The notes under the pieces were generated by a model. The model did no database searches. It was not told where the DNA came from and was given only the letters and a program-made list of their open reading frames with translations. This document shows positions 1 to 59,563 of a stretch of 64,000 nucleotides of DNA, one piece after another (positions within the stretch are counted from its first letter, which is position 1; each line of letters begins with the position of its first letter). The position numbers were made by a program, and so were the translations under genes. This DNA comes from Eledone cirrhosa. Its lineage: Eukaryota. The stretch covers positions 25,916,001 through 25,980,000 of the forward strand of contig OZ024743.1 in the NCBI GenBank assembly GCA_964016885.1, read 5' to 3'.

Positions 1-2536
1 ACAATACTGTTGTTACTGTAATACAGTTATATCAGTTGACAATACTGTTGTTACTGGAATACACTTATATCAGTTGACAATACTGTTGTTACTGGAATAC
101 ACTATCAGTTGATAATACTGTTGTTACTGGAATACACATATTTCAGCTGACACTACTGTTGTTACTGGAATACACTTATATCAGTTGATAATACTGTTGT
201 TACTGGAATACACTTATATCAGTTGATAATACTGTTGTTACAGGAATACACTTATATCAGTTGACAATACTGTTGTTACTGGAATACACTTATATCAGTT
301 GACAATACTGTTGTTAATGGAATGCACTTATATCAGTTGACAATACTGTTGTTACTGGAATACACTTATATCAGTTGACAATACTGTTGTTACTGGAATA
401 CACTTATATCAGTTGACAATACTGTTGTTACTGGAATACACTTATACCAGTTGATAATACTGTTGTTACTAGAATACACTTATATCATTTGACAATACTG
501 TTGTTACTGGAATACACTTATTTCAGTTGACTATACTGTTGTTACTGGAAGACACTTATATCAGTTGATAATACTGTTGTTACTGGAATACACTTATATC
601 AGTTTACAATACTGTTCTTACTGGAATACACTTATATCAGTTGACAATAATGTTGTTACTGGAATACACTTATATCAGTTGACAGTACTGTTGTTACTGG
701 TATACACTTATATCAGTTGATAATACTGTTGTTACTGGAATACACTTATATCAGTTGACAATACAGTTGTTACTGGAATACACTTATATCAGTTGACAAT
801 ACTGTTGTTACTGGAATACACTTATATCAGTTGACAATACTGTTGTTACTGGAATACACTTATATCAGTTGACAATACTGTTGTTACTGGAATACACTTA
901 TTTCAGTTAACAATACTGTTGTTACTGGAATACACTGATATCAGTTGACAATACTGTTCTTACTGGAATAGACTTATATCAGTTGACAATACTGTTGTTA
1001 CTGGAATACACTTATATCAGTTGATAATACTGTTACTGGAATACACTTATATCAGTTGACAATACTGTTGTTACTGGAATACACTTATATCAGTTGATAA
1101 TACTGTTGTTACTGGAATACACTTATATCAGTTGATAATACTGTTGTTACTGGAATACACTTATATCAGTTGACAATACTGTTGTTACTGGAATACACTT
1201 ATATCAGTTGATAATACTGTTGTTACTGGAATACACTTATACCTGTTGACAATACTGTTGTTACTGGAATACAGTTATATCAGTTGACAATGCTGTTGTT
1301 ACTGGAATACACTTATATCAGTTGACAATACTGTTGTTACTGGAATACACTTATATCAGTTGATAATACTGTTGTTAATGGAATACACTTATATCTGTTA
1401 ACAATACTGTTGTTACTGGAATACACTTATATCAGTTGACAATACTGTTGTTACTGGAATACACTTATATCAGTTGACAATACTGTTGTTACTGGAATAC
1501 ACTTATATCAGTTGATAATACTGTTGTTACTAGAATACACTTATATCATTTGACAATACTGTTGTTACTGGAATACACTTATATCAGTTGACAATACTGT
1601 TGTTACTGGAATACACTTATATCAGTTGATATTACTGTTGTTACTGGAATACACTTATTTCAGTTGACAATACTGTTGTTACTGGAATACACTTATATCA
1701 GTTGACAATACTTTGTTACTGGAATACACTTATATCAGTTGATAATACTGTTGTTACTGGAATACACTTATTTCAATTGACAATACTGTTGTTACTGAAA
1801 ACACTTATATCAGTTGACAATACTGTTGTTACTGGAATACACTTATGTCAGTTGACAATACTGTTGTTACTGGAATACACTTATATCAGTTGATAATACT
1901 GTTGTTACTGGAATACACTTATATCAGTTGATAATACTGTTGTTACTGGAATACATTTATATCAGTTGACAATACTGTTGTTACTGGAATACACTTATAT
2001 CAGTTGATAATACTGTTGTTACTGGAATACACTTATATCAGTTGATAATACTGTTGTTACTGGAATACACTTATATCAGTTGATAATACAGTTGTTACTG
2101 GAATACACTTATATCAGTTGATAATACTGTTGTTACTGGAATACACTTATATCAGTTGATAATACTGTTGCTACTGGAATACACTTATATCAGTTGACAG
2201 TACTGTTGTTACAGGAATACACTTATATCAGTTGACAATACTGTTGTTACTGGAATACACTTATATCTGTTGACAATACTGTTGTTACTGGAATACACTT
2301 ATATCAGTTGACAATACTGTTGTTACTGGAATACACTTATATCAGTTGACAATACTGTTGTTAATGGAATACACTTATATCAGTTGATAATACTGTTGTT
2401 ACTGGAATACACTTATATCAGTTGATAATACTGTTGTTACTGGAATACACTTATATCAGTTGATAATACTGTTGTTACTGGAATACACTTATATCAGTTG
2501 ACAATACTGTTGTTACTGGAATACACTTATATCAGT
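1..2536. repeat. 38-bp tandem minisatellite (ACAATACTGTTGTTACTGGAATACACTTATATCAGTTG)n, about 66 copies, runs off the window start
   Basis: Unit recurs every 38 nt (positions 1, 39, ...) with scattered substitutions and small deletions; no unique spacers, so not CRISPR. Confidence 0.97.
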
Positions 2537-2821
2537 GTATATGTTAGCAGTGAGATAGATATGTTTCTTTTATTTGCCACCAGGGCATCAAAAGTGGGAC
2601 AAGTACAATGGGGGGAGTTTACAAAACAAGGCGTCCTCAATAGGGAGGAGGCAATAACAATATATAAAAATAAAATAAAATATAACAAAAAATAAAATTT
2701 ATAACAAAGTCCTCAATAGAGAGGAGGCGCCTTGGGGGGTCGCACACACCCCCGAAAAAAGTGTGCAACTCTTCTCCTCAGGAGCACAGAGAAGGGGTGC
2801 TCCCTTGGTTTTTCATCTTCC

Positions 2822-5800
2822 TCACCTATAGTCTGATGTAGAGTGAAGGCCCATCACACGGGCCATTCTCGCCACTTTCACCCATCTTTCATAGAAACGG
2901 CTGGGATGCAGCACCTCTCTCTCCATCCTAATCCTTCTTCCGAAATGATATCGGAAGAAACGGACCAGTTGTTGGCCAGAGAGAAAGGTGTCTGACCTCA
3001 GTCCTTTCAGACGCGTCCACCATACAACCTCTTTCGCCATGGCTATTACGCACAGAAACACCGCCTCTCCTTCGTTTTTGAAGAGGGGAGGCGGCTTGAT
3101 CGTTACAACAGACTCGGTGGTCAACCGGATCGGTCCCACCCTTGACAGCAGTTGTTCGACATAGCCCCACAGATCGGCAATGCCCGAGCAGTGTACCAAT
3201 GCGTGTGCAACGGTTTCCTCGTCGCACACGCATCTGGGACAGACCTTTTTCGATGGGTCCCTACCCGGGCGCCCGTGTCTGTAGAGCCTTTCTCGAACGG
3301 GCAGAGCCCTTCTGTAGCATTGCCAGGCCAGGGACCTCTGGAAGTTATCCATGGGTCCCGGGCTCAATGTCCTACCGAACAGGTTGGCCAGTTCGTCTTC
3401 CTCCATGCCTAGGGCTTCTCCGAGGGCGCCGTCGCACCTGCTAACCACCAGCCCTCTATAGAATGACGAGGTGGATTCTCCACTGACAGCCGGGTCCGCC
3501 TGCCAGAGAGCCGTGAGCCCCTGGGCACACTCGGTGTGCCAGGCGCCCAGTTTTCTCGGTCTTTGCTTGACCCAGGATTGCAGCTCGGTGAGTGAGACGA
3601 GTCTGGGAAAGGCTCGCCTCACAAACGGGGCCCACACCGGTTGACCGGAGAGGAATACCTGAAGGTGCCGTAGCCTTAATGCGTGTTTACGTATCATCAG
3701 CCACGGCATCCCCAGCCCTCCTTTCGAAGGGTGTTGACAGCAGATGGATCTCCTCACCATAGGAGCCCGCTTCTTCCAAAGAAATTGGAAGAGTGCGCGC
3801 TCCATTTTGGCGAGCGTTTCCCTTGGGCAAGGCACCACGGTCAGGCGGTAGTAGATGACGGACGCTATATAAGTGTTCGCCACCTCCGCCCGACCTTTCA
3901 GGGACAGTTTGCACTCGTCCCACTTCTGGGTCAGTGCAAACACCCTGCTCGTCACCTCACCCCAGTTCTTCTCCACCTGGAGGTCTGGTCCGAACCAGAC
4001 CCCGAGCAATTTCACCGGGCCCTCCGTCCAGCGCCCGACGACGCCATCGGAGGGCATCGATCTGCCCCTCCACGTGCCGAGTTGCAGACCGATCGACTTG
4101 TCCCGGTTCAGCTTAGCCCCTGTAAACCTTTCGTACTCCTCCAGTAAGGTGCCGATCGCCTCGATTTCCGAAGCCGTCGACACCATTACTGTTACGTCAT
4201 CGGCGTAGGCTGACACCGCTTTCCGCAATCCCGGTTCCAACGGGATGCCCTGCAACAACTCTAACTTCCGCAGCAGTGGCTCTAGAGTCACTACATACAG
4301 AAGGGAGGAGAGAGGGCAACCCTGTCGGATGGACCGCGCGATTTCGAACGGCTCCGAGAGGTAGCCGTTCACCTTGACCCTAGAGCAGATGCGGCTGCTG
4401 TGCATGGCATTGATCCAGCCCCTGAAAACGGGTCCGAAGCCTGCCGCCGCTAGCACCGCATCCAGGTAACCATGGTCGACCCTATCGAATGCCTTAGATT
4501 GATCCAAGTTGATCAGGGCCCCACCAAAGCCGGGTTCGTTCCCAACCCTCTCTATGATGTATCGCATGAGGTGGAGGTTATCGTGGATGGACCTGGACGG
4601 GATAGCACATGTCTGCGCATCTCCCACCAGGTTTCCCACGACAAGCGCCAACCTCTTTGCTAGCACCTTGGCCAAAATCTGTAACTCTGTATTTAGCAGA
4701 GTTATGGGCCTGAAATTATTTATATCGTCCCCCTTGTTCTCGTCCTTCCTCACTAGCGTGACTACGCCCTTGGTCACAGCACAGGGAATTCTCCCGTTCT
4801 GTCGCCAGTTGCAGTAGACCGCCTCGAGGAGTTCGGGGAACAAGTCCGGCATAGCTAGATATAGTTCGTATGGAAGACCATCGAGACCCGGGGATTTGCG
4901 TTTGCCGCATTGGCTCAGCACGTCCTCTATCTCAGCGGCTGAAATCGGCTCCTCGCAGGACTTCGCCTCCCTGTCCGAGAGACGCGGCAGGCCGTCGAGG
5001 TATGGACCGAAGCCCACGTCCCCAACCGGCCCCCCGCCCCTTCCGAACAATTCGGCAAAGTGCTTTTGAAAAGCCTCGCACATCTGCTTAGGTTCAAGGA
5101 TCACCCGTCCATCCTGGTCTCGCAAAGACCGGATAGTGGATCTGCTCCCTCTTTTGGCTTCTGTCGCGCGGGCGCAGCTAACAGCTTTGGTCCCCTCGTT
5201 TCCCAGAGCACGTATTTTGCTTCGGACGAGGCAGCCTTCGTGTTTCGCGTCGAAGAACTGGCCCAGAGCCGTTCTCGACGCTAGCACTCTGGCCACGTCG
5301 CCGCTTCTAATTGCCTCTTCTACACTATCTACCAACTCCCTTTCCTTCCTATTTCTATTGGAGGCTAACTCCTTACTAAATTCTATAGAGACTACTCTAA
5401 TCTCTCTTTTGAGAGATCCCCACCACCTGCTGTTGACGATGGCGCCCGTCGACCGCTCCTTAACTAAAGTGCTAATCCGGTTCCTGTAAGCCTTACTTGC
5501 CGGTAAGGACAAGTTGAGCTTCCAGTAACCGGGTCCCTGTCTATGAGTTCTGTCAAGGTTGACCATGCAGGTCACTAATTTGTGGTCTGAATAGCCAACC
5601 ATGCGCATTTTTGGACAACTTAAAAAGTCCTTATCCTTAATTCTAACTAAGAACCTATCTAGGTACGACCTAGATGTTCCGCTACGATTTGCCCAAGTCC
5701 AGGTTGGCGCAGTAGGAAAATCTAGTTGATATCTATCGGCCAGGTCAAATCGACCGATTAACCCTTTGAGGCTATTACACCCCTCTCTATCGGGACAGGC

Positions 5801-6262
5801 CCCTACGTAGTCCCAGCGTGCATCTAGGATACCATTCCAGTCCCCCACTAATAGCAAGGAGCGGGACGTCCCTAGAAAAGTCTCCAGACGATGGAAGAAG
5901 TCCGACCGCATTGACCCGAAAGGGCCGTAGGCAGCTACCAACCTAAACGCTCCGCCTTTACCACTGCCAAGGTCCAGAACCACTAGTCGACCCTCCGGGT
6001 CCAAATGTACTATCTGTGTTGCGAGACCCAGATGTTTTTGCAGCAGAACGACAACTCCACCCCCACCTCCGGGCTGACAGAGAGATGCGTGCATCTCAAA
6101 GTCATCAAAGGTGGGGGCCAGCTGTCGCACGTTGCTGATCCGGGCCTCGCAAATAACCATCACATCTATACGTTGTGACCTGAGGTCATTTAGAAGCATT
6201 GCTTGCTTCCAAGTTGAGCCCAGGCCACGCGCATTTAAACAGCCTACTCTTAGCATAGCCAT
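2822..6262 (-). CDS. Tx1/L1 ORF2: APE endonuclease + reverse transcriptase + C-terminal Cys/His zinc motif, uninterrupted
   Basis: LNARGL, GDWN, SYLDRFL, SDH (APE); KSPGLDG, NFRPITLLN, DQSKAFDRV, RQGCPLS, AYADDV (RT); CPRC..ETVAHALVHC. First ATG is at 6262 (ORF track starts at GTG 6286). Confidence 0.95.
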   Translation of the reverse strand: MAMLRVGCLNARGLGSTWKQAMLLNDLRSQRIDVMVICEARISNVRQLAPTFDDFEMHASLCQPGGGGGVVVLLQKHLGLATQIVHLDPEGRLVVLDLGSGKGGAFRLVAAYGPFGSMRSDFFHRLETFLGTSRSLLLVGDWNGILDARWDYVGACPDREGCNSLKGLIGRFDLADRYQLDFPTAPTWTWANRSGTSRSYLDRFLVRIKDKDFLSCPKMRMVGYSDHKLVTCMVNLDRTHRQGPGYWKLNLSLPASKAYRNRISTLVKERSTGAIVNSRWWGSLKREIRVVSIEFSKELASNRNRKERELVDSVEEAIRSGDVARVLASRTALGQFFDAKHEGCLVRSKIRALGNEGTKAVSCARATEAKRGSRSTIRSLRDQDGRVILEPKQMCEAFQKHFAELFGRGGGPVGDVGFGPYLDGLPRLSDREAKSCEEPISAAEIEDVLSQCGKRKSPGLDGLPYELYLAMPDLFPELLEAVYCNWRQNGRIPCAVTKGVVTLVRKDENKGDDINNFRPITLLNTELQILAKVLAKRLALVVGNLVGDAQTCAIPSRSIHDNLHLMRYIIERVGNEPGFGGALINLDQSKAFDRVDHGYLDAVLAAAGFGPVFRGWINAMHSSRICSRVKVNGYLSEPFEIARSIRQGCPLSSLLYVVTLEPLLRKLELLQGIPLEPGLRKAVSAYADDVTVMVSTASEIEAIGTLLEEYERFTGAKLNRDKSIGLQLGTWRGRSMPSDGVVGRWTEGPVKLLGVWFGPDLQVEKNWGEVTSRVFALTQKWDECKLSLKGRAEVANTYIASVIYYRLTVVPCPRETLAKMERALFQFLWKKRAPMVRRSICCQHPSKGGLGMPWLMIRKHALRLRHLQVFLSGQPVWAPFVRRAFPRLVSLTELQSWVKQRPRKLGAWHTECAQGLTALWQADPAVSGESTSSFYRGLVVSRCDGALGEALGMEEDELANLFGRTLSPGPMDNFQRSLAWQCYRRALPVRERLYRHGRPGRDPSKKVCPRCVCDEETVAHALVHCSGIADLWGYVEQLLSRVGPIRLTTESVVTIKPPPLFKNEGEAVFLCVIAMAKEVVWWTRLKGLRSDTFLSGQQLVRFFRYHFGRRIRMEREVLHPSRFYERWVKVARMARVMGLHSTSDYR

Positions 6263-6286
6263 GTTGGTGGTGAAGAGAAAAGGCAC

Positions 6287-8035
6287 TTACCTCTCTGCGT
6301 CCCGGGTATCGGGCTGCACAATTTCCATTAGGGTGGGGGATGGGTTGTTGGGTGGGGTGGTGGTTTGTGGAAGTGTAGGGGCATCAGTGTGTTGTGTGGT
6401 TGGGGAGCTTGGAGTTGTGTGGGTGTTTGGGGAGGGGGTGGGATAGTTTTTTAGGAGGACGCGGTTAATGGGCCCGACGCAGGGGGGACCCACGTCCTCT
6501 TTAAAATTGTTTTATAGGTGTCCTGTGGCGCCTTAATCATTTTGAGGTGGGGGAAATCCCCTGCCTGGGTGAAGTTAGGCCCTTGTGTTTTTATTAGATT
6601 GTTGTTGTACACAATGTTTAACAGTTTTTTGTTTCTTGTGTTTATGTATGTGTATGCATGTTTTTGTTTTTGTGTGGTGTTTTTTGTTTGCTGTTGTTGT
6701 AAGCTCTTTTGTGTTGGTGTCAGTGTTATGTTTTGGGGAGGGGTTGTTTTCATTTGTGTGTCTGAGGTGTGTTTTCTTTTTTTTCTTTTGATTGTGTGGA
6801 AGTGCTCCTCCTCGTCTGACGACGAACTAGGGTCATCTTCCGCGTTGGAGGGGAGGGGTATATTTTCGGGTTGTGTTTGCGGTGCGGGTGTTTTGGAAAT
6901 TGTTTTTGTTTTTTGAGTGGAGGGGATGGGTTGGACATTGTTTTGTTTTGGTTTGAGCTGTGGTGGTTGTTTTTGTAGTGGTAGTTGTGGTGATTGTGTT
7001 GGTTGTGCAGTTGTTGGTGGTGTAGGCAGGATTGGTGTTTTATTATTAAGTTGGGGACAGACAGCCCTCAGGTGACCTCTGGTTCCGCAGAGGTAACACG
7101 AGGGCCGTCTACCCTCAACGGTAATGTTGATGAAGGTTAGATCATCCAGTATGACGCGTTCAGGGATCTGGGCGATCCTTTCGGGCCTCATTTGAACTAC
7201 AAGTTCGAGGCTCGTTCCACTGAACGCGTCACCCGATGCCTTTCCCATGGACACCAGCATGTCATCCTCCAGGTCCAGGAAACCTGTCAAAACCCACCAT
7301 ATGTCCATAATCGGCAGGATGGTGTGGATTTTTATTTTTTGTGTTCTTCTACCCATGTACGTAGGGTAGAAGGTGTATGCGGTGGATGTGATTGGTTTGA
7401 TGGACAGTTTCACTGCTGTGTCCCTGTCCTTCATGAGAATGGATAGACTCCCGTAGAGTCTATCCTTCTGAATGAAGGTGATGTCCTTCATGACGTCTTT
7501 TAAAACCAGGTCTATCTCACTCTGTGATGGTTGAGCTGGTTTTTTACTTTTATTCGAGATTGTCCTAAACATGACCGTGTTTAGGAGTCTCTGGCTTTTT
7601 AGTTCCGGGGGGGGGGGGGTGGATTGTGAATGAACCATTTTCCCCGTACACTATATATTTTTTTGCATCTGCCAGTAGCTCCTTCGCTTTGGTTATATCT
7701 ACTGGCAGATAGTCGAGGGTTTTCCTTGTCGTCTCGGCGAAGGAGAAATTTTGTTTGTTTGTGTTGTTGTTGTCGTTGGTGGTGTTGTTGTTATCATTGT
7801 TGTTGTTGTTATTGTTATTGGTGTTGTTTTCGTCCGTCGCATTGTTGTTGTTGTTGCCGCTGGTTCTTTGGGTTGTTGCCATGGCAACGTCAAGTTGTCG
7901 GTTAACAGGTGGAGAGAATTCTTCCTCTGGCTGACCTTTCTTCTTGACCTCTGCTACTGTGACAGTGGCAGGGGGAAGCTGTAAGTTTATCTTCCCCTTT
8001 CCTCCTTCGAATTTTGGTGAAGAAGCTTCGGCCAT
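6287..8035 (-). CDS. Tx1 ORF1 (gag-like nucleic-acid-binding protein) split into three frames at homopolymer runs
   Basis: ORFs 7565-8035, 6451-7638 and 6287-6493 overlap at G13 (7607-7619) and G6 (6482-6487); zinc knuckle CYLCGTRGHLRAVC; Pro/Thr/Gln-rich C-terminus. Confidence 0.75.
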
Positions 8036-19753: not shown

Positions 19754-22700
19754 TAACAGATTAAAGTTTAAGCAAAGAATCGCTGCTTTCACCCTTAACG
19801 GGATCTTCTGAAACTAACAAAGTCAATCTGTGAATGCAGAAGTGAATATTTCAAAAAACGTTGCAACCGGAGGAAGACAGGAAGACAGGAAGACAGGAAG
19901 ACAGAAAAACGATACTTTGGTTCGTGGAAACGTTCCCTGGCAAAGAACGGGAAAAAACGAATATAATTCGTCATTATTTGGAGCGGTGAAAAACAATTAC
20001 ACGCAAAGACAAAACCACGTTAATGGTATAAAAGAAGTCGTAGACAAATATTCTATTAGGTGGTTCATAGAGACGTTCTCAGGCAATGAACGGAAAAAAC
20101 GAAGATAATACGTCATATGTGCAGCGAGGAGAACAATTGCACGCAAAGACAAAACCACGTAAATGGTATAACTGAAGTCGTAGACTAAAATTCTAACTAG
20201 GAAACCGAATGATTCTCGGCTTCAGAGTTAAGAATAAAGTAAATAGAATACAGAGGTAATTGAAATAAATACATACACCCATCCAAGACGTACATACACA
20301 AGCATACGCGAAAACACTCGCCATAGGTATACAAATACACGCACGTACACAAAAAAAAAATCCACATGCACATACAGAACCCACTCAACGCCTGTACCCG
20401 CACGCATACGAATGTATAGACCAAATACACACAAAAATATATATAAAAATATATATATTAATACATATATATGTGTGTGCGCGCGTGTATACATATAATT
20501 AAATAAACAAATAAATAAATACGTATATAACAAGCGCACACACATACCTACATGCAAATACACATATGTCGGAGACGTACGTCAACCAAAACACGAAATA
20601 CACATATACACACACCCTACATACGTACGAACCCGCATACTCACACAGACGCAAAACTCACGTATACACATAACCACAAGCATATGTACCACAATATATA
20701 ATATATACGCCATAACACATACAATCAAATATACGTACGAGGAAGTATTACGTACCTTCATAAAACATACAGGTAATATATACTTACCTATACAAATAAG
20801 TAATGGTATAAACAAAACATATATTTAGCTACCACATCAAGACGTAAAATATCCGCGTATAGTTCGTACTATCCGTTAGGGTATAATGTGGGGCTGTAAT
20901 ACAGGAACGTTTTGTGCAATTTATGTTTTTAAGCTGAAATTGCTTCAGATTTTTTGTTTAAGATGTGGTCTTTGGCGTAGAGTATTTCCAGAGCCTCAGC
21001 GGCGCAGAGGTCACATGGTCTTTTATTTCCGTTATACAATCTAGCCCTAGCAAGGATCTCCCAGTGTAACTTATATTGGGTATGGTTATCTTTTAGACTC
21101 CAGATATAAGCTGAAAGGGACGTCATATTCCTTCTTAAAGGGTAACGAAAAGAATGGGTAGGCATGTAAAGACGCTGCTTGAATCTATTGGCGGTTAACC
21201 CTATGTAGGCCCTACGGGACGTGGGTGTTTTAACCTTACATTTGTAGACAATGTTACTAGAGAGGCATTTCCCGGATAGGGGGCAGTCAACCCGATTCCT
21301 ACAATTACAGTTAGTACTAACTACAGGGTTGCACGTGTTCCTACGGCTAGGTAGTTTAGCTAAATTTGAAGCTGTGATGTTATGTGCAAGGTTAGGAGTC
21401 GTAGAGTAAGAAATTTTAATAGTATTTCTATTAAAAATTTTACTATATTTATGTGTAGGGGGAAAATGCACCATAATAAGGGAGAGAAAGATCTTAGCTA
21501 ATGGTATGGCCACCTCCATATTATATGGTGGGTTATACCATATAATGCGTCGGGATCTATTTCTTCTAGGTCTATTCTCGTACTCTCTAAATGATACCTT
21601 ATCGACAAATCCACTCCGAGCAAGAGCTTCATTGTAATATGTGGAATGGTCGTTGAAAATATGCTCGTTAATAGATAGACGGGAAAGCCTCAAAGAAACG
21701 TTTCTTACCAGGTTCTTGGTTATGCTGGCAGGATGGTTAGAAAGCTTACTTATGTAATTAAGCGGATCATTCGGCTTTCTATACGGGTAATGAAAGCCAT
21801 TCGATAAATTGATGGTAACGTCGATGTAATTAACGACAGAGAGGTTGGCCTCAACTTGTATGGAGAAGTTGAAGACTTTAAAGAAGGCTGTGAGTTCTTT
21901 TCTGAACCTGTCGCAAGCACGTGGGCCGCACTTAGTCATGGTCAAAAGACCATGATCACGGTACAAACCACCGCCCACGTTGGGGAATTCTTCCTTGATA
22001 GAGAAAAGAAGGAAAAGGCTGATAAGATCAGTAACCTCCGCAAAATCACTGGTGCCCATACTCACGTGGAATAGGGTACTATTGGATTTTTTAATCCAAA
22101 TAGAGTCGTCGAAATTAATCACCGACTTACGGGCATTGAGAATGACATCAACTTCGAAATCCTTAACCACTGTGAGTGTTTTAGCGAAATTGATAGCTCT
22201 AAAGAGAAGTGGTAAAGTGATGGAGGAGTAGTAATTATTGATGTCGAATTGGATAAAACGGCAATGTTCCTTGTTACATATGCCGTTGAACCAATCAATC
22301 ACCACGAAAGAATTGTTCCACAGTGCAAGAGGGGCCAAACTTCTAATTTCAGGTATAATTCTATCAAGAATCCTTTTACTAAGTCTAGCTAAATCGGACT
22401 TTGTAGGGTTAATAAGCCGAATAGAAGGGTTGTTCGGAAAAATGGATTTGTGATCTTTCAGGGTAAAGTGGGGAGAAATATGGTCCAGAGTTCAGTCCGG
22501 TCCAGGATGTTGAGATCAGAGGTGATTTTAAACCCAGCATCGTTGATTTTATAAATGATGCTCCGATTAGTTTTACGGTAATCCTTAGTTACAGCATTAT
22601 GTAGCAGTTGATGGTAAGTACTGCGCTCCACTTGATATAGATTCCAGTTTTGTCGGAATGGACGTGCACGGCATTAGAATCCTTAATAGAACGAATTCTA

Positions 22701-23430
22701 TTCTTCAGGTCCTGCTGGAAAGAATTGCTCCTATTCCGAAATTTGATACTCCGTATGAGTTCCGAGACATCATTTTCGAAGGGTAGCAATGCTGGGTTAC
22801 TCAGAGGGTTATTATAGGTTTTAAATCCAAATTTATCCTGTTTGTTGTCTGCTTTTCCCTGATTATCGAAATAAAAGGCTCGCCAACGCAACCTTTTAAT
22901 GAACGCGTCTGTTTTCTGTATCAGGAGTTTTAGGTATGTTTTCCTGCTTGGTACGGGTATGTTCTTTGCAGAAATATTCAGATGTTTCTGCATGATGAAT
23001 ATAAGTCAATAGAGTGCTCAACCGAGGGACCCATGCGTGCAATTGTTCTCCCCGCTCCACATATGACGTATTATCTTCGTTTTTTCCGTTCATTGCCTGA
23101 GAACGTCTCTATGAACCACCTAATAGAATATTTGTCTACGACTTCTTTTATACCAAAAACGTGGTTTTGTCTTTGCGCGTAATTGTTTTTCACCGCTCCA
23201 AATATTGACGTTTTATATTCGTTTTTCCCGTTCTTTGCCAGGGAACGTTTCCACGAACCAAAATATTGTCTTCCTGTCTTCCTCCGGTTGCAACGTTTTT
23301 TGAAATATTTACTTCTGCGTTCACAGATTGACTTTGTTAGTTTCAGAAGATCCCGTTAAGGGTGAAAGCAGCGATTCTTTGCTTAAACTTTAATCTGTTA
23401 TTTTAATAAATATTTGCTCTACGGTTCATA
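19748..23430 (-). mobile_element. Penelope-like retroelement, Naiad type, in (TA)n; 3' pLTR (19748-20195) and inverted pLTR copy at the 5' side (23036-23430)
   Basis: RT + GIY-YIG ORF; the two terminal segments are reverse complements; both ends abut (TA)n. Confidence 0.9.
20869..22993 (-). pseudogene. Naiad/Penelope RT-GIY-YIG ORF, frameshifted, with catalytic YRDD changed to YRDH
   Basis: KNIPVPS..FIKRLRWRAF; TLKDHK..RLINPTKS; QFDINNYYSSI; GLYRDHGL; IIWYNPPY; CNCRNRVDCPLSGKCL; IVYKC..YIGLT..FKQR; CDLC. Confidence 0.9.
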
Positions 23431-29666: not shown

Positions 29667-30252
29667 ATATATATATATATATATATATTTTGTTATACTT
29701 GGAGAGGGTCATATTGTTGTAATAATATTGCCAGAATTAATATCAGAACACACTCACTGTTTGGTTGGTTTTCGTTTCTGTATCTTTTATATCAGTTAAT
29801 TTATTCGGTCCTCAATGTTTACCATTGACTGACCAACGGTCAAATAATACAGATATAATATAGACACAAACACATATATATTGTCTAACAAAGTTCTTTC
29901 ATTGCATATCTGCAACATCGTCAGTGGTGCTATTATTATGTTCCTCCTGTTGTATTGTATATCTACGCCATCTTTATTTAATGTTTATTTATTTATTTAT
30001 TTATTTTGTCTTCTCTGCGCATGCGTTTGCGTGTGTATAGTGTTTGGTGTGTGTTCGCGTTTGGGTGACTGTGTTTTGGTTATTGTATTCTATCTTAGTT
30101 TACTAGTGTGTGTTTATATGCGTTTGTTATTATTGTGCTTGTGTATATATTTATTTATTTATTTATATTTCTCTTAGGTCAGTATTGTTTGTTTGGGTGT
30201 TGTTGTTACTCCATTAATTTTTTCTGTTCGCAAAACAAATATATATATATAT

Positions 30253-30750
30253 AACGAAGGAAATATGGTAAGGAACTAGGTGGACCATAACGCACCAGAG
30301 TACTCAATACTTAAGGTAGTAGAGTGGGTAATAGGAAAATGTTAAAGACCCCGACGGCAGAGCTCAAGCCGTTTCGACGTCTATTTCTGGACCTGCCTTT
30401 GTGTAGGTGGAGTTCAGGCTGCTCCTGATAAGTGTGTGGTATCTGTCAGCGTTGACGAAATAGAGGTCTCCAGTTTTGTTCGAATGCACCAGGATGTCGT
30501 TGATGCTTTCTTACTCCGTTATTTTGCTACAGGGTTGTAGGAATCGGTTGTCTGAGTTTGAATTTTATACCCTTGACCAGGTTGAAAAGGTCGTTCTCGA
30601 GGGGTGAGAGCAGAGGGTTCGGTGGGGGAGATTTGTAGGTATTGAATCCGAATCTCTCTGTCGAAGTCCTGGTTGTCGCGGTATCTATCGTAGGTCCAGA
30701 AATAGCCGTCGAAACGGCTTGAGCTCTGCCGTCGGGGTCTTGAACATTTT

Positions 30751-30753
<3 letters not shown>
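30253..30753. mobile_element. (TA)n-flanked element with inverted arms; family also at 26631-26697 and 42441-42637
   Basis: 30329-30393 is inverted at 30692-30754; same left end aacgaaggaaat.tggtaaggaac as 42441. Confidence 0.8.
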
Positions 30754-30825
<72 letters not shown>

Positions 30826-37263: not shown

Positions 37264-39229
<1,966 letters not shown>

Positions 39230-42442: not shown

Positions 42443-42637
42443 CGAAGGAAATGTGGTAAGGAACCAGGTGGACCATAACGCACCAAAGTACTCAATACTT
42501 AGGGTAATAGAGTGGGTAATAGGAATGAGTAGGACCCCGACGGCTGAGCTCAAGCCGTTTCGACGGCTAATTCTGGACAGTCCAGAATTAGCCGTCGAAA
42601 CGGCTTGAGCTCAGCCGTCGGGGTCCTACTCGTTCCT
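42441..42637. mobile_element. (TA)n-flanked element ending in a near-perfect ~120-bp palindrome
   Basis: 42519-42578 versus 42581-42639. Confidence 0.85.
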
Positions 42638-42743
42638 ATATATATATATATATATATATATAACGAAAGGAGCTGTGTGGTTACTAAAAACAAGGTTTAG
42701 GATGGTGGTTAGGACGGAACAAGAGGAGAAAGGAAGAAAGGAG

Positions 42744-42859
42744 TTTCCATCATCAGCTGTAAATGTTTCCCGATCCGATGTTTCGGCGCTGAATTACAGG
42801 ACATCGGTGTATTTCGGGTGCGCCCGAGGCCTTTTATTAATCAAAAGGCCAAGTGGAAA
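42744..42859 (-). ncRNA. Candidate permuted, pseudoknotted hammerhead ribozyme inside a ~220-bp (TA)n-flanked element (42662-42880)
   Basis: CUGAUGA, GAAA and GUC cores; stem III ccgatgt/acatcgg, stem I ctgtaa/ttacag, plus ggcgc/gcgcc, cccga/tcggg, tttcca/tggaaa. Confidence 0.75.
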
Positions 42860-42953
42860 AGGAGAGAGAACGAAAGAGAATATATATATATATATAAGTC
42901 CCGGATTCAATTGGGGTTAACCAATACATTAGTAGAGTGTATACAACAAAATG

Positions 42954-43286
42954 TAATATAGAAATTGCTTCTAAAGGACTAGAACTGTTTCATTCGAAGG
43001 AAATCCCCAGGAGAGCCATCCTTGTGATTGCCTTCGAATGAAACAGTTCTAGTCCTGTAGAAGCAATTTCTATATTAAATTTCAATCGGGGGTTCAATCG
43101 GGAGTAACAACAGTAAGTAAGGTACTCAATACATGGCAGCGTATATATATTTATTATAGAAATGGCTTCTACAGGACTAGAACTGTTTCATTCGGGAGAA
43201 ATCATCAGGAAACCATGATCATTTCAGGCTTCCTGATGATTACTCCCTAATGAAACAGTTCTAGTCCTGTAGAAACCATTTCTATA

Positions 43287-43290
<4 letters not shown>
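42954..43290. repeat. Two palindromes of one PLE pLTR-like family with HHR-like cores; relative at 59325-59450
   Basis: aggactagaactgtttcattc and its complement; CUGAUGA..GAAAC on both strands of 43152-43290. Confidence 0.75.
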
Positions 43291-43353
<63 letters not shown>

Positions 43354-43490
43354 CGCCTTCTCATTTTGTATGGCCTTTATAACCTATCTTTATTGCTCTG
43401 GTCTCTTTTGGTCCATGGAGCGCTTGCCAGCACGACTCGGATATTACGCTGCGTTTCGCTTATTTCTACCCGCCGAAATACGATTCTCGC

Positions 43491-43617
<127 letters not shown>

Positions 43618-43810
43618 GTACATACATATATGTATACAGACGTACAGTAGTATGTATATATATATACATACATGCACACATATATATATGTACGTATGGA
43701 TTCACCGAACATTTATTATAATGCTCGGTGTGTTTGTAAACAAACATCCCGTATTAAGCCGTATTGTCCAGCAACTATCGTTGTTCGTTTGTTCAACACT
43801 GACAAAGGAA

Positions 43811-43858
43811 CGCTGTACTAGTTTCAAGCATATTAACTATTAGCTATCGTCAGCAACG
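43811..43858 (-). ncRNA. Minimal type I hammerhead ribozyme
   Basis: cgttg-CUGACGA-uagc..gcuu-GAAA-CUAG-UA-cagcg. Confidence 0.8.
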
Positions 43859-43992
43859 TATACCTTCCTGCCAGATTGTTGAACGTATATACTTACCTTA
43901 TGCATATTAACGGCTGAGTAGCCCAATTTGCATATCGAGTGGGTTAATCATAAGGTAAGTATATACGTTCAACAATCTGGCAGGAAGGTATA

Positions 43993-44033
43993 CGTTGCTG
44001 ACGATAGCTAATAAGCTTGAAACTAGTACAGCG
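43993..44033 (+). ncRNA. Minimal type I hammerhead ribozyme (PLE type, palindromic stem III)
   Basis: Stem I cgttg/cagcg; CUGACGA; stem II agct-aata-agct; GAAA; ACUAGU palindrome; GUA site at 44028. Confidence 0.88.
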
Positions 44034-44295
44034 TACCTTTGTCAGTGTTGAGCAAACGAGCAATGATGGTTGCTAGACACTACGGCTTAATACGGGATGT
44101 TTGTTTACAAACACACCGAGCATTATAATAAATGTTCGGTGAATCCATACGTACATATATATATGTGTGCATGTATGTATATATATATACATACTACTGT
44201 ACGTCTGTATACATATATGTATGTACGTGTACATACTTATATTTAAGTAACAGCTGTACTAAGAGTGGGAAATGAAATTTCGTTTCATTTTTTCC

Positions 44296-44371
<76 letters not shown>

Positions 44372-44410
44372 CTATCTATATATATATATATATATATATA
44401 TTCATATCTA

Positions 44411-44457
<47 letters not shown>

Positions 44458-44825
44458 ACCTGCAGTATTTTTCTCTATATTTTAATACATATATTTACCA
44501 CTGCGATTCTGTGTTTTTTCTCTCTCTCTTACTGTTCCCCCATTCTCTCTGTTTCTCCCCCTCTGTCTTGTCCGTTAACTCTTCCTCACACTTTCACTCA
44601 CTCACTGTTTTTCTCCCTCTTCTCTTCATTTCATCCTGCACTCACGGACGCTATTTTTTCTCTCTCTGCTCAATGGCATTCGTTCGTGCTGGACTATTCT
44701 TTCCCTAGCGCTCATATATTCACCTAGCTTACGCTAACAGAATAATTTTTGAAGCTTGTTTCTCTCCCACGGTATGCTATCTTTTCTGTTGTTCCCCTGT
44801 CTCACTCGCTTTACGCGTTTTAATT

Positions 44826-44926
44826 GTCCTAATAACTTATTTGGGTTATTATTGCACCGAAGTGAGATATATGATTTTTAATGCAATGAAATATCTATGA
44901 TCTTCGGCAAATCACTGATGAGGGAC
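44826..44926 (+). ncRNA. Candidate permuted, pseudoknotted hammerhead ribozyme (copy 1)
   Basis: gtcct/gggac, aataac/gttatt, attgca/tgcaat, ccgaag/cttcgg, agatat/atatct, tgattt/aaatca arranged around GAAA and CUGAUGA. Confidence 0.7.
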
Positions 44927-45321
44927 GTATTTTATTACATGTTACCATGTGCTACCTGCAGTATTTTTCTCTATATTTTAATACATATATTTACCACTGC
45001 GATTCTGTGTTTTTTCTCTCTCTCTTACTGTTCCCCCATTCTCTCTGTTTCTCCCCCTCTGTCTTGTCCGTTAACTCTTCCTCACACTTTCACTCACTCA
45101 CTGTTTTTCTACCTCTTCTCTTCATTTCATCCTGCACTCACGGACGCTATTTTTTCTCTCTCTGCTCAATGGCATTCGTTCGTGCTGGACTATTCTTTCC
45201 CTAGCGCTCATATATTCACCTAGCTTACGCTAACAGAATAATTTTTGAAGCTTGTTTCTCTCCCACGGTATGCTATCTTTTCTGTTGTTCCCCTGTCTTA
45301 CTCGCTTTACGCGTTTTAATT

Positions 45322-45422
45322 GTCCTAATAACTTATTTTGGTTATTATTGCACCGAAGTGAGATATATGATTTTTAATGCAATGAAATATCTATGATCTT
45401 CGGCAAATCACTGATGAGGGAC
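45322..45422 (+). ncRNA. Candidate permuted, pseudoknotted hammerhead ribozyme (copy 2)
   Basis: Same as 44826 shifted by 496; the one difference is in a hairpin loop. Confidence 0.7.
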
Positions 45423-45517
45423 GTATTTTATTACATGTTACCATGTGCTACCTGCAGTATTTTTCTCTATATTTTAATATATATATATATATATATATAT
45501 ACATATCTATCTATCTA

Positions 45518-45591
<74 letters not shown>

Positions 45592-45595
45592 CATA

Positions 45596-45728
<133 letters not shown>

Positions 45729-59045: not shown

Positions 59046-59563
59046 ACATATATATATAAACAATATATTAACAAATGGAAACTATATTTATAAAACCATA
59101 TTTATTTCATTATACATATTTCAAGGACACCAAAGCAAATTATGGTGCGCTTTCATCAGATAAAATATAATATAGATTAGTTTTATAAACAAATATTGAC
59201 ATACCCTTAAAAGAATGCGACCATGTCTGTTGGAAGCTGCTGGATAGCCATAGTATCCCAACAAATTAAATATAACCTCTACATATATATAAACATATAT
59301 ATATATATGTGTATATATATAAGTTTATCCGGGTTGAATCGGAGGTAACCACAGTAAGTAAGGTACTCAATACATAGCAGAGTATAAAAGTTTTAATATA
59401 GAAGAGCCTCTACAAGACTAGAACTGTTTCATTCGTGAGAAATCATGAGGGAGCTGGCTGTCCAAATAAGTAGTGGTATTTATATCTTTTCTTTTCTGGT
59501 GGTGGGAGAGGGTATGTATATATATATATATGTATATATATATCTTATATATATATATATGTG

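Follow-up and report, generated by a model that had tools for sequence, protein, structure and literature searches.

The minus strand of a 64,000-nt stretch of the Eledone cirrhosa genome (the whole analysed stretch, hereafter the window) contains at positions 42744–42859 what is, judging from its sequence and by analogy with characterized relatives, very probably a self-cleaving hammerhead of the non-circularly permuted SGC family, built in a new way and located in non-autonomous Penelope-like (retrozyme-like) repeats. We infer cleavage by hammerhead chemistry because SGC and CSG relatives have been validated in vitro, as described in the available portions of Eckert et al. 2023 (PMC10085705).

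A pseudoknotted hammerhead core in the window

All 13 segments named in the preliminary description were found at their minus-strand positions. They lie within a 5′-truncated copy, ∼220 nt long, of a repeat termed F1 (42663–42880, minus strand), which has (TA)n on both sides, its 3′ edge at +137 from the predicted cut and its 5′ edge at about −80. Four differences separate this copy from the F1 consensus, none of them in the catalytic core. Read 5′ to 3′ along the minus strand, the predicted structure begins with the 5′ strand of helix Pa (UUUCCA, 42859–42854; 3′ strand UGGAAA, 42749–42744) and a junction hairpin (42825–42853) closed by C42853–G42825 with a 2 × 2 internal loop and a 9-bp stem, of which the first reading had given the strands 42850–42843 and 42835–42828. 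These are followed by the 5′ strands of Pb (GGCGC, 42824–42820; 3′ strand GCGCC, 42789–42785) and Pc (CCCGA, 42818–42814; 3′ strand UCGGG, 42773–42769) and by a hinge bulge of 5–6 nt between Pc and stem III (42808–42813). Pa, Pb and Pc were assigned from sequence and covariation. Given the closing pair C42853–G42825, Pa, the hairpin and Pb join without spare nucleotides.

Eckert et al. split the hammerhead into blocks S, G and C and obtained the order S-G-C in 583 sequences (PMC10085705, available portions); the window copy has the same block order. Its block S (42794–42807) consists of the stem III 5′ strand CCGAUGU, C17 and the stem I strand CUGUAA, the linker UUCA and block G (42775–42793) add the Pb 3′ strand, GAAA (42784–42781) and the stem III strand ACAUCGG, and block C (42744–42762) comprises the stem I strand UUACAG, CUGAUGA (42756–42750) and the Pa 3′ strand. 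Stem III has 7 bp (42807–42801/42781–42775) and stem I has 6 bp (42799–42794/42762–42757). The hammerhead core bases C3 U4 G5 A6 N7 G8 A9, G12 A13 A14 A15.1 and U16.1 H17 are all present, and stems I and III adjoin the core and covary, in agreement with the earlier claim that both stems abut a complete core with a predicted cut after GUC, between 42800 and 42799. The segment positions likewise bear out the order UH, GAAA, CUGANGA, which requires pseudoknots. A second UCGGG (42827–42823) can pair with CCCGA to give a local hairpin competing with Pb and Pc; in the pseudoknot-free minimum free energy fold, Pa, the hairpin and stem III form and this competing hairpin replaces Pb and Pc (z = −2.1).

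A loose core-plus-stems descriptor gave three matches in the window, all of them true family members, versus one match in 50 block-shuffled windows; besides the present copy, it matched the two F8 copies at 44826–44926 and 45322–45422 described below. As had been predicted, standard models missed the motif: no Rfam model matched the window at its gathering score, and no hammerhead model was among the 60 matches at E ≤ 10 in 42600–45600. The preliminary description had also taken the strand order to be undescribed, which was mistaken, the order being already known as type SGC with in vitro cleavage published in 2023 (PMC10085705, available portions). Its reading of a hammerhead core, a pseudoknotted order and upstream pairing stands; the novelty that it attached to the order does not.

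Covariation and the replacement of stem II

The genomic copies fall into about ten subfamilies, among which every helix, including Pa, the hairpin, Pb and Pc, is rewritten by compensatory changes. In a first alignment of 14 hand-picked copies (F1–F4 and F7), 88.3% of the cells were paired and double changes occurred in 14 of 25 pairs, where MAFFT misplaced part of Pb and the F7 core and only two Pb pairs were counted. A second, nearly gap-free alignment of 14 copies (F2, F4 and F8–F10) was 95.6% paired with double changes in 24 of 34 pairs (Pa 2/4, hairpin 6/8, Pb 2/4, Pc 5/6, stem III 3/5 and stem I 5/6, plus the 10.1–11.1 pair). None of 500 shuffles reached the values of either alignment and slid partners gave 31–49%, but with 14 related rows chosen by hand in each alignment these shuffle counts cannot be read as probabilities. 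Taken on its own, Pa provides weak evidence, given that 181 of 2000 shuffles reach it in the pyrimidine-rich flank, and an upstream-swap matrix was discarded as a Pa test since such flanks made it non-discriminating. The hairpin differs in sequence but keeps its shape in F4, F7 and F8, and is absent from F5, leaving a three-way junction. The old subfamily F6 was left out of the alignments because its Pa-hairpin-Pb order was not clearly fitted; in its copies (L118, L123 and L141–L144), the Pb partner seemingly lies upstream of the Pa partner, inside a hairpin.

Covariation across the subfamilies upheld the earlier statement that both would-be stem II strands pair with upstream segments. In F1–F3, the base after A9 (U or A) mismatches C11.1 and pairs with an upstream A or U, while an upstream G, which in F1 is the first G of the Pb 5′ strand replacing G10.1, pairs with C11.1, leaving a stem II of 0 bp with the junction directly on the core. 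The pair next to A9 is formed in 14/14 rows of the first alignment with four pair types. A stem II made by the strands after A9 and before G12 (R10.1–Y11.1) was not found in F1, where these strands give a U × C mismatch, or 2 bp after a 1-nt insert, and Pb is formed instead. In F4, F5 and F8–F10, there is a single 10.1–11.1 pair (G-C, G.U, or U-A in one or two copies), followed by the junction. The pairing comparison of subfamilies thus agrees with the earlier drawing of F1, in which stem II is replaced by a junction seated on the core, and the 0-bp and 1-bp states are one branch-migration step apart. In the mechanism that we propose, Pb would act as the functional stem II by stacking on the A9.G12 pair. 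In F1, with the G of Pb supplied by the upstream strand and CUGANGA exiting into Pa, a four-way junction of core, Pa, hairpin and Pb would result, and the other subfamilies would place the same junction one pair further out, on the 1-bp stem II.

The missing canonical G10.1–C11.1 pair in F1 weighs against an active ribozyme of this build. A doubtful alternative, which partly overlaps with our preferred explanation, is that the active F1 form resembles HRIMA-1, with a U inserted after A9 and a stem II of 2 bp (GG/CC), and that Pa and Pb belong to a more stable, inactive branch-migration isomer holding the ribozyme off. CUGAUGA-U-GG and CC-GAAA do match the U-insert core of HRIMA-1 as given in the portions of its description available, metazoan Penelope-like hammerheads keep both an extra base and G10.1–C11.1, and the upstream CC and GG can pair together, so that such an isomer exists on paper. 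However, the nucleotide following A9 and its upstream partner change together (U-A in F1 and A-U in F2–F3), which is not expected of an unpaired insert, position 11.1 is C, U or A across the subfamilies, and the isomer with the 2-bp stem II was 12.7–12.9 kcal/mol less stable in a three-strand estimate whose loop penalty overstates the gap.

The hinge between stem III and Pc

Formation of every helix requires that Pb, stem I and Pc come together at their ends. In the proposed fold, stem III is linked through Pc to the distal ends of Pb and stem I, and the RNA would bend sharply at a K-turn in most subfamilies or at a bulge in F1–F3. A K-turn (a 3-nt bulge, then G.A and A.G) was found in none of the 56 fetched copies of F1, the subfamily of the window copy, which weighs against an active ribozyme there. 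Among the loci fetched from sister subfamilies, the K-turn consensus, as a sequence consensus only, was present in 14 of 19 for F5a, 28 of 34 for F8–F10 and 2 of 10 for F4. In F5a and F8–F10, the G.A and A.G pairs are mostly continued by U.U; F2b (8/8) and F4 have G.A and then A-U; F2a has plain pairs; and F1, F3 and F2c carry a bulge on the other strand. This hinge consensus presumably resembles the box C/D and Kt-23 turns. No natural hammerhead with a K-turn was found in our literature search. The K-turn consensus and its included angle of 50° are described in the available portions of PMC5061560 and PMC2790904.

The linkers are short where Pb, Pc and stem I meet, and the fold might accordingly be unable to close as a monomer. 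It might instead require either a dimer formed by domain swapping between neighbouring units or a bound protein, which could be the reverse transcriptase (RT) of the element or a member of the L7Ae family sitting on the K-turn. The units are often in tandem, minimal hammerheads of Penelope-like elements (PLEs) act, weakly, as dimers, and L7Ae proteins bind K-turns according to the source portions available. We nevertheless consider this unlikely: the palindromic stem III of dimeric hammerheads is absent, a K-turn or bulge lies exactly where a monomer must bend, and SGC monomers with short linkers cleave (PMC10085705, available portions). The junction form offers a natural series in which stem II goes from 1 to 0 bp and the hinge from K-turn to bulge, suited to kinetic and structural work.

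Anatomy of the host repeats

The motif belongs to a dispersed repeat with 919 candidates in the genome, the best of which had 96–100% identity among 40 scored. The F1 unit is about 775–820 nt long (821 nt in L024) and 71% pyrimidine, based on 60 loci, some of which represent the same place twice, and it is ORF-less, with a longest stop-free frame of 111 aa. Copies are 5′-truncated singles or 1.2–1.5 units in tandem. Their 3′ ends are fixed: 56 of 63 edges lie within (TA)n between +137 and +155 relative to the cut, with a smaller group near +105, while the 5′ edges are scattered. The cut site was considered as a hot spot of 5′ truncation and rejected, with no edge at the cut and a single one at −4. 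In inverted F1 pairs (L061, L082, L096 and L056), one copy lacks the last ∼45–50 nt.

A second, very young family, F8, lies in the window at 44456–45489 on the plus strand as a 496-nt unit in partial tandem, copies elsewhere being 94–100% identical. It contains two predicted ribozyme copies, one at 44826–44926 (plus strand), with the same architecture, all helices in other letters, the K-turn consensus and a predicted cut at AUA 44871/44872, and one at 45322–45422 (plus strand). F8 has 985 candidates in the genome, arrays of at least five units and a longest ATG ORF of 108 aa, and the wider F8 group has about 9,800 pattern matches genome-wide. Direct F8 copies mostly end at +122 and some at +101 or +119 from the cut. 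The 25 loci fetched included three independent inverted ones, and in each of these the inverted copy ended at +69. The youth of F8 points to an active mobilising element.

Together, F1 and F8 display partial tandems, an inverted 5′-truncated copy, a one-sided tail and a microsatellite target, which are Penelope-like marks; the tail and the inversion are described as typical of PLEs in the available part of 10.1101/2021.04.23.441226. Both also follow the retrozyme plan of non-coding tandem units with one predicted ribozyme each. By analogy with internal RT start sites described in the available portions of PMC11167929, the 3′-edge groups of F1 and F8 fit two such sites. When folded as circles, the units were 40–47% paired and not rod-like, which led us to reject a viroid-like rod.

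Other repeats were observed in the window. Long near-perfect palindromes of two other short repeat families occur in the same (TA)n tracts (42519–42639, 42949–43082 and 43142–43299), as well as at 30239–30392, 30694–30778 and 59331–59450, and recur in many fetched loci. A 616-nt unit forms three identical tandem copies at 37264–38985, and a LINE with a 1154-aa endonuclease-RT frame (Pfam RVT_1 and Exo_endo_phos) and an ORF1-like frame upstream lies at 2822–7650 on the minus strand.

In the proposed life cycle, read-through or tandem transcripts would be cut at GUC in each unit and the monomers circularised by ligation. Reverse transcription, by a Penelope-type enzyme that most likely belongs to the Naiad clade, would start internally ∼100 or ∼150 nt past the cut at nicked (TA)n and continue across the junction, sometimes more than once round, to give inserts of one to several units. 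Inserts that span the cut site and may be longer than one unit rule out a cut linear monomer as their template, but could have been copied from a religated circle or an uncut multimer. Having no promoter of its own, the fragment in the window would depend on read-through transcription for any cutting.

The position of the motif 100–150 nt before fixed 3′ ends would also suit a ribozyme-descended, non-catalytic structured signal for RT binding or priming, as would inserts that run through the cut site and 5′ ends that do not gather there. Such run-through is equally expected from a religated circle, and all of the catalytic bases and the N-U-H rule (GUC, GUU, GUA, AUA and AUC) are kept while every helix changes, which makes this explanation very improbable.

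Abundance in the genome and controls

In the 3.0-Gb genome, three patterns yielded 986, 232 and 9,779 matches versus 0, 19 and 6 in reversed controls; the patterns are mutually exclusive at the bases after GAAA, and their sum of 10,997 versus 25 is a lower bound. U-H was found at the predicted distance in 9,144 of the 9,779 matches, although the pattern made no such demand. Metagenome and viral contigs gave 16 and 44 matches to F1–F4-type patterns, none with the fold, and were taken as a chance control. The first four stem I pairs were intact in 102 of 137 assigned genome copies versus 1 of these 60 chance matches, where 7 of 144 pattern matches that fitted no subfamily were left out of the assignment. 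A per-copy junction test was passed by 37 of 56 F1 copies (22 of 1,120 shuffles), but also by 10 of 58 chance matches from outside and by none of 39 F5–F7 copies; the outside passes and the F5–F7 failures weigh against the active-ribozyme explanation.

Three contig sets of public runs span the motif, all from one sample that is possibly the source of the assembly, and no RNA run was among the listed public runs that hold the repeat. A chance arrangement or an assembly artefact, which the weakness of Pa alone in its pyrimidine-rich flank might suggest, has a negligible probability in view of the thousands of copies, the covariation and these contigs, even with their single and possibly shared source. 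Hitherto rare RNAs from environmental samples, non-circularly permuted hammerheads thereby reach at least ∼11,000 copies in a single animal genome, and animal ribozyme censuses built on type I–III descriptors are accordingly incomplete.

Naiad elements and the search for a mobilising partner

In the available portions of Craig et al. 2021 (PMC8557442), Naiads are reported to have no canonical hammerhead, some cores matching no descriptor are noted, and eight ‘HHR_half_core’ flags are given without a fold. In the published Naiad 3′ ends, we found by eye that three Acropora Naiads, Naiad-2_Movir, Naiad_Obim, Naiad_Ovul and Naiad_Esco have the S-G-C order together with Pa, the hairpin, Pb and Pc, the K-turn consensus being present in Naiad_Obim and Naiad_Ovul and Pb being imperfect in Naiad_Esco. 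The same fold appeared in one further, unlabelled Naiad entry and probably in a ctenophore entry, and the C-S-G order in seven nematode entries and Naiad_Smim. Hosts of the junction form were corals, box jellyfish, octopus and squid, and those of the CSG order were nematodes and a spider. In one set of six 3′ ends, three (oyster, mussel and toadfish entries by file order) were without the motif in the 500 letters shown. These assignments were made by eye rather than by program at 60 of 81 places of one search word in the source, which is not a census. The 3′ UTR end of Naiad-1_Movir has, again by eye, what we take to be a twister-like motif where other Naiads have a hammerhead.

On these grounds we regard it as probable, with less confidence than for the window motif itself, that active non-circularly permuted hammerheads occur in Naiad-clade PLEs and in the non-autonomous elements associated with them, in hosts ranging from cnidarians, and probably ctenophores, to molluscs, nematodes and spiders. 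SGC, CSG and the junction form would be three openings of one closed pseudoknotted ring, the junction form being without a conventional stem II and with a K-turn in most cephalopod copies. If true, these would be among the most abundant ribozymes of invertebrate genomes while invisible to current descriptors, and the junction form in most cephalopod copies would be a natural hammerhead with a built-in protein-binding hinge. A widespread group of invertebrate transposons, supposed to have no ribozyme, may in fact carry the window-type one, which offers a candidate answer to the puzzle of the Naiads, whose reported lack of hammerheads was read as showing ribozymes to be dispensable.

No autonomous element with the window-type ribozyme was found in the E. 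cirrhosa genome by a few searches among the matches listed. PLE ORFs beside some copies were rejected as the partner, being separate insertions with canonical hammerheads. The motif was present at none of the best 30 of 150 listed GIY-YIG loci, with one weak match without the junction, the Naiad_Obim motif was absent from the genome at two mismatches, and no same-strand pairs of F1-pattern matches 2–6 kb apart occurred among the first 100 of 986 matches listed. A Naiad RT motif had 11 genome matches, nine of which resemble decayed Naiad RT (L311–L317, L320 and L321), and none of the four 3′ regions read behind such remnants held an intact motif. That the Naiad remnants of the host are decayed and F8 is young weighs against our preferred explanation.

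Minimal hammerheads of canonical order were seen in the 3′ UTRs of three PLE families, at L097 (minus strand, 1–3018, with an open 1005-aa frame), L102, L112 and L121. In the window, a broken Penelope-like RT with a GIY-YIG-like ORF lies at 20929–23005 (minus strand), with no Pfam match at E ≤ 0.001 and no ribozyme seen in its flanks.

Comparison with known systems

The repeats share with Naiads the (TA)n targets, partial tandems, inverted copies and one-sided tail (PMC8557442, available portions). Naiads, according to the same portions, are autonomous (N-terminal GIY-YIG plus RT), whereas the F1 and F8 repeats are ORF-less and tied to them by fold and anatomy only. Animal non-LTR retrozymes are likewise non-coding tandem units, dispersed, with one hammerhead each, and have been proposed to be non-autonomous PLE derivatives (PMC7229834; 10.64898/2026.07.22.740005; both in the portions available); they are defined there by the type I hammerhead and were searched with type I descriptors, whereas the present motif has the S-G-C order. 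The minimal type I hammerheads of PLE pLTRs (PMC4209133) also lie near the 3′ end of the element but, unlike the window form, have the canonical order and a palindromic short stem III and are dimeric (PMC4209133). An origin from a dimer of such canonical minimal hammerheads was rejected as a simple route by the reasoning that it gives S-C-G, not S-G-C.

The closest relative is type SGC, which in vitro was cut where predicted and could be rescued with compensatory mutations, C-S-G having been validated as well; the 583 SGC sequences are metatranscriptomic, none being reported from the genome of a known organism (PMC10085705, available portions). In our literature search, which covered mainly openly accessible papers, only Eckert et al. 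2023 treated SGC, and the available parts of PMC13725137 and PMC10162972 added no such form. As far as this search shows, three features are new, none having been found in print: the junction that takes the place of stem II, the presence in the genome of an animal and the setting in retroelements.

The window copy shares with SGC, as far as the available description goes, a short linker (UUCA here and UUCA/UUAG-like in SGC) joining stem I to the stem II strand and a helix bridging stems I and II, here Pc, at the same chain position and with the double changes in 5/6 pairs noted above. In the SGC example HRIMA-1, one purine separates the stem II strand from the I/II interaction helix, which has its partner strand between stems III and I; we equate Pc with this helix because GGCGC, A and CCCGA show the same layout. 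The two differ in that SGC has a ∼5-bp stem II made directly by the strand after CUGANGA(U), whereas in the window copy the strand lies upstream and continues into stem III. The rule of Eckert et al. that block C (stem I strand, CUGANGA and stem II strand) is uninterrupted is broken here, and with it an explicit assumption of the permutation scheme, that block C cannot be interrupted. In a comparison by hand with the available part of the SGC descriptor, the window copy would be missed because two pairs beyond G-C are needed and it gives one, followed by A × G.

Type SGC opens between the interaction helix and stem III, whereas in the window form CUGANGA is joined via Pa and the hairpin, and the opening lies there. 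Type CSG resembles the window form in being a circular permutation of the same closed ring, but has another opening point and a plain stem II and is represented by two sequences from metagenomes in the available portions of the source (PMC10085705). If the gap in HRIMA-1 were closed, Pc would extend stem III and would have to double back towards the distal ends of Pb and stem I. One ring with three openings may underlie these forms, HRIMA-1 being opened from the interaction helix to stem III, CSG from stem III to the interaction helix and the window form in Pa after A9.
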